This document shows positions 2,895 to 8,937 of a DNA stretch of 8,937 nucleotides, in pieces. The notes beneath the pieces were generated by a model. That model was not told the DNA's origin, did not search any database, and saw only the letters and a list, made by a program, of their open reading frames with translations. The number at the start of each line of letters is the position of its first letter. Position 1 is the first letter of the stretch. The DNA comes from a virus (taxonomy: Duplodnaviria; Heunggongvirae; Uroviricota; Caudoviricetes). The translations under genes and the position numbers were made by a program. The stretch lies in IMG/VR virus record IMGVR_UViG_2671180511_000005; one strand, written 5' to 3'.

Positions 2895-3242
2895 TTACGG
2901 CAGCGCTGCGTGACTCAGGGCACTGCCGGCAAAGGCATTCGCCTTTTTGTGTGTATCCACTCTCTCAGGCCAGTGGATGGCCTCCGTCGCAAAGGTCCCC
3001 GACTTGTAATACGTCAGCACCGTCTCTGTACCTTCAAGCGGCAGTACCAGTATGCCAACCACATGGCCTGCCTTCTGTCCGTCCCAGACCACCAGTTTCC
3101 CGGTATCCTCATCCAGCATCAGGGGCGTCAGAGCCGGTGTTGCCGAGGAAATCCCGCTGCAGCCTGTGGCGGTATGGGCCGGATCATTACCGGCAAAAAT
3201 ACGTACTTCCGCACGCTGTTCAGTGATGGTTTTCGTTACCAT
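2895..3242 (-). CDS. D: head decoration protein gpD (lambda D-like)
   Basis: 115-aa ORF: DPAHTAT, TPLMLD...KLV.WDG, VGIL, YKSGTF and AFAG.A.S match lambda gpD. ATG at 3240-3242 with a GAGG-type SD in the 36-nt spacer after the C stop. Confidence 0.88.
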   Translation of the reverse strand: MVTKTITEQRAEVRIFAGNDPAHTATGCSGISSATPALTPLMLDEDTGKLVVWDGQKAGHVVGILVLPLEGTETVLTYYKSGTFATEAIHWPERVDTHKKANAFAGSALSHAALP

Positions 3243-3278: not shown

Positions 3279-3941
3279 TCATGGCATGGCCATGAGCATT
3301 TTCACGTCCGCATCACCGTCTGCTGACGTCTGTGGCACGCCACCCTGTACCGCTGCCGGTGAATGGTTCGCCATGNNNNNNNNNNNNNNNNNNNNNNNNN
3401 NNNNNNNNNNNNNNNNNNNNNNNNNNNNNNNNNNNNNNNNNNNNNNNNNNNNNNNNNNNNNNNNNNNNNNNNNNNNNNNNNNNNNNNNNNNNNNNNNNNN
3501 NNNNNNNNNNNNNNNNNNNNNNNNNNNNNNNNNNNNNNNNNNNNNNNNTTCAGCCTGCGCCTCTGCCCCTTTTGCCTCATCCAGGGCCATAATCTGATCA
3601 CGAAGTGAGGGTCCGGCATTCGCCTGCGGTGAAGCAGCCAGAATCGGACGGGCTTTTTCCACCGTCATCTCCGGCATCGCCGCCAGCGTTGCCGCCAGTT
3701 GTTCACGTCCTTTCGCCTCTTCACATGCCATAATGCGATCGGCTTCACTCTGCGCAGATACACCAGATTGTTGCGGTGCCGCCACGGCCAGAATCGCCCG
3801 GGCCTGCTCAACGCTCATACCCTGTTGCCCTGCCAGCATCGTGGCCAGTTGTTCACGTCCTTTCGCTTCCTGACACGTCAGGATCCCCATCACTCGCTGG
3901 TTCTCCTGCGCGGCAGCCTCCGTTGCAGTTAATTGCGGCAT
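3279..3941 (-). CDS. nu3: scaffolding protein Nu3, in-frame internal start within C
   Basis: Internal ATG at 3939-3941 (MPQLTATEAA...) is preceded by AGGAGG with a 4-nt spacer and is in the C frame (4844-3941 = 903 nt = 301 codons). It corresponds to where nu3 starts inside C in lambda. Contains the RIMG/EEA.GRE scaffold motif, repeated. Confidence 0.55.
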   Translation of the reverse strand: MPQLTATEAAAQENQRVMGILTCQEAKGREQLATMLAGQQGMSVEQARAILAVAAPQQSGVSAQSEADRIMACEEAKGREQLAATLAAMPEMTVEKARPILAASPQANAGPSLRDQIMALDEAKGAEAQAEXXXXXXXXXXXXXXXXXXXXXXXXXXXXXXXXXXXXXXXXXXXXXXXXXXXXXXXXXXMANHSPAAVQGGVPQTSADGDADVKMLMAMP

Positions 3942-4844
3942 AGTGCCTCCTGTATCGTGTGTGTTCAGCGTCGCAGCCATCACGCTGATGGCGTCCGACG
4001 CATTGATTAATTCATCCGCCAGTTCGGCCTCAATACCGGACTGACCTTCAAAAACGGCGGCCTCTGTTCCCATAACCGCATCCACAGATAAACCGGTATA
4101 CATCGCCACTTTTTCAGCAAACATCCGGCGCGCCGCATCAATGCGCTGCTGCATGTCCTGGCGAACCTTTGCTGGCAGGGATTCAAACTGATTGCCATCC
4201 ACCTTGTGCGATCCGGCGTAAATCAGCGTGATATCCACACCGGCCTGTGCCAGATGACCGGCATAGCTGACATGGCCCATCATCACCCCAATGGAGCCGA
4301 TACGGGATGTCTGGGTAACCAGCCGTCGGGAGCAGGCCGATGCCAGTAACATGGCGGCTGAACAGGCCGTGTCATTGCACAGTGCCCAGACAGGCTTCAG
4401 CTGCCGGAGACGGTAAATCATGTCAGCGCAGTCAAACGCGCCGGTGGCCTGCCCGCCAGAACTGTCAATGTCCAGCAGTACGCCCCGTACCTGAGTGTCC
4501 GCCATTGCCTGCTGAAGACAGGCGACAATGCCGTCATAGCCAGTCATTCCGGAAAATGGCCGCATGCCACCCAGCCGGTGTACCAGCGTGCCGGTCACCG
4601 GCAGTACAGCAATACCGTTCACCACCCGGTAAACACGGGCAGGTCGTTTGCCTCCGGCCATGTACTCGTCCGTTTCAGCCAGCATCCCGGGAGCGTCAAG
4701 CTGTACCTGCTGTTGCGGTACCGAAAGGCTTGCTGCGCCCATCTCACGCCCGAGCGCGCAAAAGAAAACCCGCGCATAGGCGGGCTCCAGAAGCAGCGGC
4801 TCATTGAATGCCGCAGCGATAATATGTGAAAGATTACGTCTCAC
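3279..4844 (-). CDS. C: capsid assembly (prohead) protease gpC, containing the nested scaffold nu3 in the same frame; interrupted by an N-gap at 3376-3548
   Basis: N-terminus AFNEPLLLEPAYARVFFCAL, then GIAVLPV.GTLV, SGMTGY.GI, GAFDCAD, KPVWAL.ND..CSA..LLASA.SRRLVTQT.R.GSIGVMM, ITLIY.GSHKVDGN and FA.KV..YTGLSV all match lambda gpC. Start is GTG at 4842-4844, with GAGGAG about 10 nt upstream and an in-frame TAG further up. Protein length is unknown because of the gap. Confidence 0.88.
   Translation of the reverse strand: MRRNLSHIIAAAFNEPLLLEPAYARVFFCALGREMGAASLSVPQQQVQLDAPGMLAETDEYMAGGKRPARVYRVVNGIAVLPVTGTLVHRLGGMRPFSGMTGYDGIVACLQQAMADTQVRGVLLDIDSSGGQATGAFDCADMIYRLRQLKPVWALCNDTACSAAMLLASACSRRLVTQTSRIGSIGVMMGHVSYAGHLAQAGVDITLIYAGSHKVDGNQFESLPAKVRQDMQQRIDAARRMFAEKVAMYTGLSVDAVMGTEAAVFEGQSGIEAELADELINASDAISVMAATLNTHDTGGTMPQLTATEAAAQENQRVMGILTCQEAKGREQLATMLAGQQGMSVEQARAILAVAAPQQSGVSAQSEADRIMACEEAKGREQLAATLAAMPEMTVEKARPILAASPQANAGPSLRDQIMALDEAKGAEAQAEXXXXXXXXXXXXXXXXXXXXXXXXXXXXXXXXXXXXXXXXXXXXXXXXXXXXXXXXXXMANHSPAAVQGGVPQTSADGDADVKMLMAMP
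3376..3548. other. assembly gap (173 N) inside the C/nu3 coding region
   Basis: Run of N directly visible, flanked on the high-coordinate side by tandem repeat copies. Confidence 1.
3549..3910 (-). repeat. tandem ~150-bp (47-50 aa) repeats within the nu3 scaffold coding region, at least 2 full and 1 partial copy, continuing into the N-gap
   Basis: Exact 22-nt match ccagttgttcacgtcctttcgc at 3695-3716 and 3845-3866 (150 bp apart); gccagaatcg at about 3634-3643 and 3784-3793; gccataat at 3586-3593 and 3727-3734. Protein repeats: RVMGILTCQEAKGREQLATMLA.../ DRIMACEEAKGREQLAATLA.../ DQIMALDEAKGAEAQAE... Confidence 0.8.
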
Positions 4845-6427
4845 GTGATGTTGTCTCCTCTTCCGGCCTGCGACTCTCCGCTATCTGCTGCTGATACGCC
4901 TGGGCTATCCACACCGGACGTGAGAGTCCGGCTTTTTCGCGCTCTGCGGATTCCCTGACCTGCTGGCGGAAAATGTCCTGATAATCTTCGCCCATCAGTG
5001 CCAGTTCTTTCTCATACGTGCTCAGTCCGGCCTCAATGCGCATCACCGATTCCTGGACCTCCTTGAGCCCGTCAATGGCCATTCTTCCGGAGCTAATCCA
5101 CTCTGCCCGTGACCAGGCTGAACGCGCCTGGTAAAAATCAAAACGCGCCCGTGGCGGACGAATAATCCCCCGAAGAAGCGCCTCTTCCAGCCAGCAGGAA
5201 AACATCTGCGTGGCCAGCCGGGCCGCAATAAATTTTCGCCGCCCCATAAAATAGCGCCACGACTCATTGGCGGAGGCGCGGGCACTTGAGTAACTGACCT
5301 TCGAGTAATCACGGGACAACTGTTCGTAGGAAACGCCAAGACCGGCTGCAATATACCGCAGCAGCGCCTGTTCAAGCGCCGAAAATCCATTGTCTGAATC
5401 CTGCGCTGTCTGCAGGTTCAGCGCATCGCCAGGAAAAAAGGTGCGGAATTTTAACACCGCCCAGCGTCACGTTATTCGTGTCATACCAGCGGGTGAACTT
5501 CTCCAGAATATTAATAAGCGGATTATCCTGCTGACCTTGCGGTGCCCCCGCGATATATTCAAATGCCTTTTCGGTATCAAGTTCACTTTCGATTGTGGCT
5601 GCATACATCGCCTTCACAATGGCCGACTGAAGCTGCGTGGCCTGCAGGGAGTCCAGCATCTTCATCCGCTCCATTACGCTGTAAAACTGATTAGCCCCAC
5701 GGGTCTGCCCGTCCTCCACCGGCTCAAAAATATGCAGCATGGCCGGACGCCCGGTGGGAAGCTCACGCGGGATCCGCTCCCAGCGTCCGGCACCAGAGAA
5801 CGGAAAATCATCCTCACAGATATGGTACGCAATCGCCCGCCCATACCGATCGACCTCAACCCCGGCCCGCAGAAAGTGGTTCCCCATACCGTGTCCTGGC
5901 GTGTCCACCCGTTTCGGACTCACGGCTTTAAAACGCGTACGGAATAACTGCGTGGTTTCCGTATCCCAGACCGGCTGCACAAAGATTTCGCCGTTAAAGG
6001 CATGCACGCCCACCCCTTCACGGATAAATTCCGTAAACGTGCGTTTCCCTTCCACGTCGATCTCGCCAAACATTCCTTCTGCGTATTCCGACCAGGCTGC
6101 TTCCACCTCCCCGACAAAACTTTTTGCCGTGGTCTCCCGCATCCCCAGCCAACGCCAGTTCAGACGGTAGCTGATAAGAAACATGTGCCCGACGATATGA
6201 TCCTTATGCAGGGCCACCGCATTAGCCGCGATACCGTTATTGCGCACCAGATCATCTGCCCGGGCATTCCCCAGACGCAATGCAGGCAACAGGGCCGCAT
6301 CGGCACTCTGCGCCGGTGGTAACCACTCTGCCATTTGCCCGCCAAATCCTGCGCCGCCTCCGTTGTAGCTGAGACTCTCACGAAGCGGAACGCCGTTCAC
6401 ATCAATCAGGACAGGCGTTCGTTTCAT
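4834..6427 (-). CDS. B: portal protein gpB (lambda B-like), interrupted by a +1 frameshift in an A6 (sense T6) homopolymer at 5434-5439; either a pseudogene or a sequencing error
   Basis: Two ORFs (5372-6427 and 4834-5457) together match lambda gpB end to end: YNGGG.GFGGQ, LLP..R.GNARADDLVRNNG.AANA, IPRELP.GR, FEPVEDGQTRGAN.FYSVME.MKMLD.LQ.TQLQSAIVKAMYAATIESELDT in the first; PGD.LNLQTAQD.DNG, LLRYIAAGLGVSYEQLSR, SANESW.YFMGRRKF and SGRMAIDGLKEVQE in the second. Removing one base from the run restores ...PHLFPGDALNLQ... (lambda has ...PHLMPGDSLNLQ...). ATGA overlap with W at 6424-6427. Confidence 0.85.
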
Positions 6428-6627
6428 AACCTCACTCCCAGCGGTCGGCGGCGTCGGGTCGTACCCAGAACCGACTCCGCATCGTTGATCGCACGGTTAA
6501 GCTCATTCAGGGACGCTGCCGTATATTCGATCCTGCGACCGTCTTTCTGTACCGACACAACCCGTTTACCGGTTAATAAATCAAGGCGCGCCTGACGCAG
6601 CGCCTGCAGTTCAGCGACTGTAACCAT
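6424..6627 (-). CDS. W: head-tail joining / head completion protein gpW (lambda W-like)
   Basis: 67-aa ORF: E.L.A.R.A...L.TGKRV..VQKDGRR.E.T..S and a C-terminal RRRR match lambda gpW. ATG at 6625-6627 preceded by GGAGGAG and by the TGA of A (TGAATG). Confidence 0.85.
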   Translation of the reverse strand: MVTVAELQALRQARLDLLTGKRVVSVQKDGRRIEYTAASLNELNRAINDAESVLGTTRRRRPLGVRL

Positions 6628-8601
6628 TCACTCCTCCGGACAGCTTCGCTGCCAGTTCTTCAAGGGTCGGTTGTGCAGTTGCATCCTTGCGGGATGCAAC
6701 TGCACAGCCAGATCAAGNNNNNNNNNNNNNNNNNNNNNNNNNNNNNNNNNNNNNNNNNNNNNNNNNNNNNNNNNNNNNNNNNNNNNNNNNNNNNNNNNNN
6801 NNNNNNNNNNNNNNNGGCATACACCAGGCAGTCCAGCGCTTCGTTACGCCGCTTTTTGTTATCCCACAACAGACGCATCTTTCCTTTTTCCCACTTTTCC
6901 ACCAGTTCCTCCGCCACCAGTTGTTGTGCCTCTGTCTGCGAAAAAATCTCCGGATTATCAGGAAAGCGGATGGCATACGATGTGGCCTCATTCACAGGGG
7001 TGGGATCGGCCTTCATTCGGGCATAGAGAATTTCTTTTGCGGTATCCGTCCCCACCTCACACAGATACACACCCCGCTGATTGCGGGTTTTCGGCATGGT
7101 GATCACCGGCTTGCCATAGACAGAGGCACCTTTTACCGGCAGTACCCGGAAAATACCGTGTTTTTTTGACCTCTGATACACGATTTCGCCATCGATCCCC
7201 CCGATATCCCAGCAGACACGGGAAATGGTCATTTCGGTACCGTCTGCATGGCGGTATTTTTTATTGATCGCCGCATCCACACGTAACAGCGTCTCTTCCT
7301 CATCAGGACGTCCCATGATGATGATTTTATCCACCAGAAAGGCTTCCTCTCCCGGAGCCCACCCCCAGACATACATCTCAAAACGGTTTCGCTGCGAGTC
7401 AATGCCCGCCGTCAGATAAACCACCCGGACAGGCACCGTTGCCGTGTAAGGCACAACCTTATCCATCAGTACCTGGTGATCGAGTTTTTCGCCCACGGCC
7501 TCTTCCCAGGTCTCGCCCAGCGTGGTGTTCACAAAAGTTTTCACGCCGTTGGGATCTTTCAGTGCATCCAGCCAGTCACAGACTATCTGTACCCTGGTGG
7601 TGAACGGACTGTACGCCGTCCATATATGGAAAGTGATGGAGCGCGGCGGCGGAATTTCATTACCCGAAGCACTGAAAAACGTCAGACCGTCACACGTCCA
7701 CATCCCGGTATTGTCACAAATCCAGCGCCCCCCGGTCTGATCAAGTTCAGACTGACGGATCACGCAGCCATTATGTTCACACAGGTAATACACCGTTTCC
7801 GGTTTACCCTTCTCCCATTTCAGGCCAAACGACGTCGCATCATCGCCAAACTTCAGATACTGCTCCTCCCCGCAATGAGGGCAAGGGACATAAAACCGCA
7901 TGAAATGCGCAGATTCATTCGCAGCTTTTTCAATCTGACAGGAGCCTTTAATTTTTGGCGTTGAACCGCGTATGGATTTTGGCCATACCGAACCTTCAAT
8001 ACGTTTATCGCCAAGCAGTGTTGGCGAACCTTCTTTTTCCACATCCGGTTCAAACGAGGAGAGTTCGTCATAGCAGACCACATCGACAGATTTTTCACGG
8101 TAGTTTTTGGCAGCAGCACCACCCAAACACCAGAACCCCACACCAGAGGAAAAACGCTTCAGTGTGAGCGTATTATCCCGGTGTTTCCGGCCCAGCCAGG
8201 GAGAAAGTTTTTTCAGGCAAGGAACATCACGAATTGTTGCTTCCACGTGAGACTTCATAAAATCTTCAGCAGCTGAGTCCGTCGGCTGAAAAAGAAGAGT
8301 GTTGCGGGATTTGTGCTCAATAAAATACCCGATCACACCAAGCACCATTTTTGTATAACCAACACGGGCAGATTTAATCAGGTTAACTGTACGAATCTCG
8401 TCATTGCCCATGCAGTTCATGATGGCGACCTGAAACTGCAGCGTTTTCCATTCCCCCTCACCGTATGACGATTCTTTAGGCAGGTAATAATTTTGATCGG
8501 CCCATTCTACAGCCGTCACCGGCAATACCCTGACCAGTGGCTGCAGTGCGATAGTGACTGCCACCATCATATTACTCAGTTGTTGTTCTGATATATTCAT
8601 C
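6628..8601 (-). CDS. A: terminase large subunit gpA (lambda A-like), interrupted by an N-gap at 6718-6815
   Basis: The supplied ORF frame (stop at 6660) matches lambda gpA from MNIS... onward: AVEWAD.NYYLPKES, KSARVGY.K, EHK.RNTL, KNYREKSVDV, GSPT.LGDKRIEGSVWPKSIRGSTPK, CPHCGEEQYLKFGD, FHIWTAYSPFT, FVNTTLGETWE, YLTAGIDSQ, WGW.PGEE, SKKHG.FRV.P.KGASVYGKP, GTDTAKE and RRNEALDC.VYA. I place the start at ATG 8599-8601 (MNISEQQ), 19 codons inside the ORF-finder start. After the gap the lambda-like C-terminus (LDLAVQLH...SCPEE-stop) is in a different frame, that of W, ending TGA 6628-6630, so the N-run is not a base-for-base placeholder. Confidence 0.88.
6672..6706. repeat. perfect 15-bp inverted repeat with a 5-nt loop, inside the 3' end of A and 11 bp from the N-gap
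   Basis: tgtgcagttgcatcc (6672-6686), ttgcg loop, ggatgcaactgcaca (6692-6706); the arms are exact reverse complements (checked base by base). Confidence 0.9.
6718..6815. other. assembly gap (98 N) inside the A coding region
   Basis: Run of N directly visible; the reading frame of A differs on the two sides. Confidence 1.
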
Positions 8602-8895
8602 GAGTAAATCCGGTAATTTATCCCCCGCACGCGCGCACTGATTCGCTCCCTTAGCAATAAGGATTTTCAGATGATCAATATGACGCGGCGTTAAATCCGG
8701 GAACTGTCGTTGCATGGACAAAGGAATGGAGTCAAGCGTACTGGATAAAGCCATCGCCAGCTTACTAAGGGCAAAAATACAAAATCCGGTATCGATAAGA
8801 TTTCCTTTTGACACCTGATTTTTTAACTGCTGTGCGACAGCCTGTTCTGCGGTCAGTTCCCATCTGGCAATGAGTAGTTTGAGGTGTACTGGCAA
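8572..8895 (-). CDS. nu1: terminase small subunit gpNu1, C-terminal (gpA-interacting) portion only; N-terminus interrupted or truncated
   Basis: 107-aa ORF: AEQAVAQQLKN, GFCIFALSKLA...S.LD..PLS.QR.FP.L..RH.D.LK and LLDEYI match the C-terminal half of lambda Nu1. Its stop (8572-8574) overlaps the start of A by 30 nt, as in lambda. The only start in frame is TTG at 8893-8895, and an in-frame TAG at 8905-8907 lies just upstream, so the lambda-like N-terminal DNA-binding domain is not encoded in this frame. Confidence 0.6.
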   Translation of the reverse strand: MPVHLKLLIARWELTAEQAVAQQLKNQVSKGNLIDTGFCIFALSKLAMALSSTLDSIPLSMQRQFPDLTPRHIDHLKILIAKGANQCARAGDKLPDLLDEYIRTTTE

Positions 8896-8937
8896 TAGCG
8901 GACACTACCATTTGTTCTTTTTTTAAGCAGCCATCTG

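Follow-up and report, generated by a model that had tools for sequence, protein, structure and literature searches.

Phage lambda encodes an S49 head protease, C, together with a nested in-frame scaffolding protein, Nu3. C is 439 aa in length; Nu3 (201 aa) starts inside the protease domain and carries one unique linker of roughly 45 aa. The partners reported for lambda Nu3 are E, C, B and Nu3 itself (PMC3224144). The corresponding genes of phage 21 are gene 5 and gene 6. In the complete phage 21 genome (OL657228.1), the long product is annotated as 'capsid protease/scaffolding protein' and the nested product as 'scaffolding protein'. The record M81255.1 ('Bacteriophage 21 head gene operon') marks three repeat_regions within gene 6, the Tri1 box, the Tri box and the Tri3 box, each of which is labelled 'function unknown; putative'; they correspond to gp5 residues 324-358, 371-407 and 418-455, respectively. 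We take this record to be that of Smith & Feiss 1993 (Gene 126:1).

The window, that is, the whole stretch of 8937 nt analysed here, covers the block of head genes of a lambdoid prophage of the phage 21 type, carried on the minus strand. It contains genes for the terminase large subunit (6660-8657), a W-like protein (6424-6627), the portal protein (4834-6427, assigned from the ORF list and synteny), the head maturation protease and scaffold (3279-4844), a D/shp-like decoration protein (2895-3242) and an E-like major capsid protein (1809-2837), all on the minus strand. The protease/scaffold gene is thus flanked by the portal gene on one side and by the decoration and major capsid genes on the other, in an order collinear with that of phage 21 and of E. 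coli prophages. It was assigned from the ORF list, its translation, Pfam and identity to phage 21 gp5. Although it is interrupted by a run of N, its minus-strand reading frame stays open across the run. In Pfam, residues 147-292 of the product match Peptidase_S49 (PF01343) with an E-value of 3.6e-33. The product is 92-94% identical to phage 21 gp5, and the DNA is ∼92% identical to that of phage 21 and related phages. Judged from these similarities, the gene at 3279-4844 is a homologue of phage 21 gene 5 and of lambda C, the S49 head protease.

Compared to the phage 21 gene 5/gene 6 region, the locus has the same gene order, the same 501-aa architecture in its closed relatives, the same nested start with its ribosome-binding site, and three repeat units at the same positions; it differs by a few substitutions, by the assembly gap and by a 1-nt insertion in the prophage portal gene. 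The single explanation that we find highly probable for the locus as a whole is the following: it is a phage-21-type head-gene block with an old triplicated module in its protease/scaffold gene, the gap hides the ordinary 113 nt found in closed relatives, and the modules would act as handles in capsid assembly.

The nested in-frame scaffold gene (3279-3941, minus strand) was placed by the position of gene 6 and of the scaffolding protein CDS in M81255.1 and OL657228.1. Its ATG is located at 3941-3939; position 3941 is also the upper coordinate of the feature described in a sequence-only reading of this DNA. The start Met is kept in relatives. One Shine-Dalgarno sequence, AGGAGG, can be read at 3946-3951 on the minus strand, 4 nt upstream of the nested ATG, and phage 21 has an annotated ribosome-binding site at the equivalent place in both M81255.1 and OL657228.1. 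With its putative internal start, the gene at 3279-3941 is, on this comparison, homologous to gene 6 of phage 21 and to nu3 of lambda. In closed form the nested scaffold is 200 aa in length, and nearly all of it consists of the three units and the tail.

The repeat unit is ∼45 aa in length. The window shows two copies in full and, of a third copy, the first 19 residues, all encoded on the minus strand. Unit 1 (ENQRVMGILTCQEAKGREQLATMLAGQQGMSVEQARAILAVAAPQQ; 3768-3905, aa 314-359) corresponds to the Tri1 box and unit 2 (EADRIMACEEAKGREQLAATLAAMPEMTVEKARPILAASPQAN; 3618-3746, aa 367-409) to the Tri box; both were identified by translation, alignment and a unit HMM. Unit 3 corresponds to the Tri3 box; its N-terminal 19 residues (LRDQIMALDEAKGAEAQAE; 3549-3605) were identified by translation and alignment, and the unit is completed in the closed genomes CP178302.1 and CP182556.1. 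The C-terminal tail (MANHSPAAVQGGVPQTSADGDADVKMLMAMP, followed by the stop codon; 3279-3375, minus strand) is non-repeated and aligns with the tails of relatives. The closed form of the protease/scaffold protein is 501 aa and contains exactly three units (aa 314-359, 367-409 and 414-456).

Smith-Waterman alignment of units 1 and 2 gave a z-score of 18.8, and that of unit 2 with the visible part of unit 3 gave 7.1; between unit 1 and the lambda unit the z-score was 24.4. For each of the three pairs, 0 of 2000 shuffles reached the observed score. The unit HMM found three copies in phage 21 gp5 (314-358, 367-407 and 414-454), which coincide with the Tri boxes, and one in lambda C (aa 357-400). 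The sequence-only reading had proposed at least three tandem copies in the Nu3-like scaffold domain and one in lambda; translation, Smith-Waterman alignment and the unit HMM support three copies here, and the count for lambda was right.

Like lambda C/Nu3, the locus has one S49 protease, one nested in-frame scaffold of ∼200 aa and a similar tail, and the single lambda unit is most like unit 1. Different from lambda, it has three units instead of one, and its protease is 501 aa instead of 439 aa. Since the nested start site lies elsewhere, the scaffold is 200 aa here and 201 aa in lambda, despite the triplication. Relative to lambda, therefore, the triplication lengthens the protease, not the scaffold.

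At the DNA level, the units are much less alike. Their identity is only 53-64%, which is why Tandem Repeats Finder reported no array in the repeat region. A repeat search identified one 94-nt pair (3637-3730 and 3787-3880) with 73% identity and a spacing of 150 nt, and one 32-nt pair (3568-3599 and 3709-3740) with 75% identity and a spacing of 141 nt. The longest exact run shared by units 1 and 2 is GCCAGTTGTTCACGTCCTTTCGC, which is located at 3694-3716 in unit 2, where it encodes part of EAKGREQLA, and at 3844-3866 in unit 1. This run is 23 nt in length, one more than the 22 nt given by the sequence-only reading, whose spacing of 150 nt was correct.

Such an exact core could also be regarded as a regulatory DNA element, for instance a CII-binding site (TTGYN6TTGY), instead of a by-product of the protein repeat. 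Two matches to this pattern are annotated within the gene in OL657228.1, and in the window the pattern occurs at 3689-3702, where it overlaps the core of unit 2, and at 3923-3936 (+ strand). Two matches are nevertheless what chance provides: 1.77 are expected in the window, and 102 of 200 shuffles reach two. Moreover, the core copy in unit 1 (3844-3866) has no match, the match at 3923-3936 lies outside the units, and the conservation across distant phages is at the protein level. Because it is no more frequent in the window than chance predicts, we discarded the CII pattern as a reason for the exact core, and we give a regulatory role of the core next to no chance of being correct.

The triplication itself is already known from the phage 21 GenBank record, and it is ordinary, E. 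coli prophages commonly carrying it: 1865 of 5426 complete E. coli genomes (∼34%) have a full-length copy of the three-unit gene. Since the Tri boxes stand in GenBank and about one third of the complete E. coli genomes carry the gene, the triplication has little weight as a discovery.

The run of 173 N extends from 3376 to 3548. The sequence-only reading placed its beginning after the third copy; as the unit boundaries indicate, the run instead cuts through that copy. To find closed relatives, we performed an exact-match scan with one genome per species, which identified two complete chromosomes with the right flank, those of E. coli ECMA0423 (CP178302.1) and Shigella flexneri SFBU1023 (CP182556.1). 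CP178302.1 has 1 mismatch to the window in 4761 comparable nt. CP182556.1 has 1 mismatch in 3731 nt up to a second gap and is identical over 3549-6717. Position 3161, in the decoration-protein gene, is the only substitution relative to both closed relatives; it is A in the window and T in CP178302.1 and CP182556.1.

In place of the 173 N, CP178302.1 and CP182556.1 both carry the same 113 nt. They complete unit 3 (KLAACPGMTVENARAVLAAASG) and add 16 non-repeated codons (RAEPVSASTTAMFEHF), which lead into the visible tail (MANHSPAAV). Among 1875 matching E. coli records, 1815 cover both flanks fully. In an even sample of 60 of the 1875, the 951-nt query is matched by a span of 891 nt in 58 records, which corresponds to the same 113 nt. 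Since the closed relatives and 58 of the 60 sampled records hold 113 nt, the N run overstates the length of the gap, as far as these genomes allow it to be read, by about 60 nt. Most probably, the gap stands for the usual 113 nt, in which copy 3 is completed and the tail begins, and not for extra copies. The true copy number had been described as undecided, with non-repetitive sequence in the gap named as the outcome that would speak against further copies; the near-identical closed genomes have exactly three copies, and at the gap they show only the rest of copy 3 and the unique tail.

The sequence-only reading attributed the gap to collapsed repeats. If near-identical tandem copies had been collapsed by the assembler, the true gene would have more than three of them; the gap does fall within the repeat array, and 104 of 5426 complete E. 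coli genomes carry a relative with four copies. However, that variant is a different allele, whose protein is 47% identical (BLASTP over the scaffold query), and both near-identical closed genomes have exactly three copies. Collapse also requires similarity over the length of a read or k-mer, and the units do not provide it: they are 53-64% identical, the longest exact run is 23 nt between units 1 and 2, and the longest exact DNA runs of unit 3 with unit 1 or unit 2 are 8 nt. The missing 113 nt have no more than 12 exact bases in common with anything else in the window. Given these short matches, repeat collapse is not a credible cause of the gap. In addition, 173 nt would not be enough to complete unit 3, encode the conserved tail and add one further unit of 141-150 nt. 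The second N run (6718-6815, 98 N) is located in the terminase large-subunit gene, where CP182556.1 has 36 non-repeated nt; gaps in this assembly are therefore not tied to repeats. Taken together, these observations make additional collapsed copies extremely unlikely. Up to five copies of the protease/scaffold gene occur in E. coli genomes, and ambiguity between paralogous lambdoid prophages would be a more likely cause of the gap.

If the length of the N run were instead exact, the source genome would have a private in-frame insertion of 60 nt (20 aa) in unit 3 or in the tail. The difference between 173 and 113 is a multiple of 3, so the frame would be kept. The second N run, however, overshoots as well, and its excess of 62 nt is no multiple of 3; that both runs are ∼60 nt too long indicates a systematic error in gap sizing. 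A longer span was seen in 0 of the 60 sampled records, every relative examined was shorter by 60 nt, and the flanks are otherwise identical to those of CP178302.1 and CP182556.1. We therefore regard a private insertion as very unlikely, and the gap is taken below to hold the ordinary 113 nt.

To place the triplication in time, we built a neighbour-joining tree of the units. Every unit 1 clusters with the single unit of lambda, and units 2 and 3 cluster by position in a comparison of E. coli and Salmonella proteins with only 45-60% identity. Because of this positional clustering, the triplication is, by the tree, old and not a recent expansion; the word 'expansion' in the sequence-only reading was misleading, as the three copies are position-specific and already recorded in GenBank.

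The wider family contains forms with 1, 2, 3 and 4 copies, as well as in-frame deletion forms. With one exception, the divergent full-length representatives (unit-bearing, at least 400 aa) have a single copy, as do stand-alone proteins of ∼134 aa. Two-copy or in-frame deletion forms are P0021, P0019 and P0015, and one 482-aa allele in the complete genome NZ_CP146687.1 (L008 1480-2928) has a 19-aa in-frame deletion in unit 2. The four-copy allele (P0024 / L006), which is at full length in the 104 E. coli genomes mentioned above, resembles the locus in that the same S49 protease is followed by a unit array and a tail and that D-like and E-like genes adjoin it; it differs in having four units, among which units 2-4 are most alike. 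At megablast level, no record in the phage collection matched this allele. That the array varies in number within the family is thus in line with the variation proposed by the sequence-only reading, but the gap in the window does not show such variation.

The same data could be taken to mean that the array is a young, unstable expansion and an active recombination hotspot in this lineage. The identical 23-nt core in units 1 and 2 would fit such a history, as would the in-register or in-frame deletion variants (P0021, P0019, P0015 and the 482-aa allele of NZ_CP146687.1) and the clustering of units 2-4 in the four-copy allele. Units 1, 2 and 3 cluster by position, however, across proteins only 45-60% identical, and the variants are a small minority, with both flanks covered in 1815 of the 1875 E. 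coli records and the same span in 58 of the 60 sampled. We consider a young expansion improbable and retain the old triplication.

A further possibility concerns what the copy number does. The number of modules (1 in lambda, 2, ∼2.5, 3 in phage 21, or 4 in another E. coli prophage type) may represent a tunable valency with which scaffold and protease bind the capsid shell, and it would be reset time and again by unequal recombination while the internal start is shifted to keep the scaffold at ∼200 aa; a private 20-aa insertion in the gap would be a minor variant of it. We put this forward only tentatively, as a reading that we do not expect to be the correct one.

As for the module itself, no Pfam model covers the unit. 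One helix-hairpin-helix match (PF00633) was obtained, with unit 3 of phage 21 gp5 only; at E=0.097 and 13 bits against a cut-off of 24 it is below the gathering threshold and was rejected. Two single-copy profiles matched in three stretches each, phrog_8940 (capsid assembly protein, 201 positions; E=1.6e-30, profile 113-176) and phrog_8399 (head scaffolding protein; E=9.6e-35). With an alignment of 27 units as input, AlphaFold2 predicted a single unit as three helices (4-20, 28-35 and 42-51), with a pLDDT of 90.1 and a pTM of 0.74. Residues that are invariant or nearly so are concentrated in the A-x-G-R-E turn that joins helices 1 and 2. When the whole 200-aa scaffold was modelled, the units were confident and the linkers weak, giving a beads-on-a-string layout with a pTM of 0.26; owing to this low value, the whole-scaffold model was left out of the fold search. 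A PDB sequence search returned nothing at E<=10, and no PDB relative was found by fold either. In a library of viral models, further phage S49 prohead proteases, including one of a cyanophage, end in the same module, with TM values of 0.81-0.85. The module is therefore a high-confidence predicted independent three-helix unit, with no solved relative, that occurs in S49 prohead proteases of distant phages. The likeness of one unit to tandem three-helix-bundle binding modules (protein A / GA / Ebh type) is a generic one of fold, and the beads-on-a-string layout is shared with them.

These results suggest how the triplicated module might be used. According to the models, each module would fold alone into one small three-helix domain, with flexible linkers between the domains. 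The module is the part common to the protease and the scaffold, and this makes it a natural candidate for a handle: through the shared C-terminus, the modules would take both proteins into the growing shell. The analogy is based on the fact that other scaffolds have C-terminal coat-binding helices. P22 gp8, for example, is a scaffolding protein with one C-terminal helix-turn-helix coat-binding module and no fused protease. Its likeness to the present system is a functional analogy only, that of one small helical C-terminal module tethering the scaffold to the coat protein; the PDB sequence and fold searches showed no sequence or fold similarity between the unit and the P22-type coat-binding helix-turn-helix.

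By the same analogy, the handles may bind the major capsid protein, each other, or both. Three handles would allow multivalent binding in a 200-aa scaffold. The 201-aa Nu3 of lambda would instead combine one handle with the linker and part of the protease domain. After assembly, we propose, the protease would remove the modules. With 1-4 copies of the module in the family, the system offers a defined and testable case for relating scaffold valency to lambda-type prohead assembly.

In the portal gene of the window, one extra nucleotide in an A run at ∼5434 breaks the reading frame into two ORFs, 5372-6427 and 4834-5457; the site reads GGAAAAAAGG in the window and GG-GAAAAGG in phage 21. The same insertion is present in the complete Shigella flexneri genome CP182556.1. 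Since it recurs there, we regard the frameshift as probably genuine and the prophage as probably defective. Given the split portal gene, the scaffold may not be in use in this prophage.

Two minor observations were made on the remainder of the block and its relatives. The terminase region at 6816-8937 is 99.9% identical to CP182556.1 apart from two small indels; one block of 86 mismatches after 7875, which appeared in a naive column comparison, is an offset artefact of these indels and was discarded. The closest annotated complete E. coli RefSeq relative, NZ_CP119441.1 (E. coli O121), is another decayed copy of this prophage type: it has IS1A in its head-tail joining gene and a truncated portal gene, with these features at 709-1856 and 5286-6068 of the locus.
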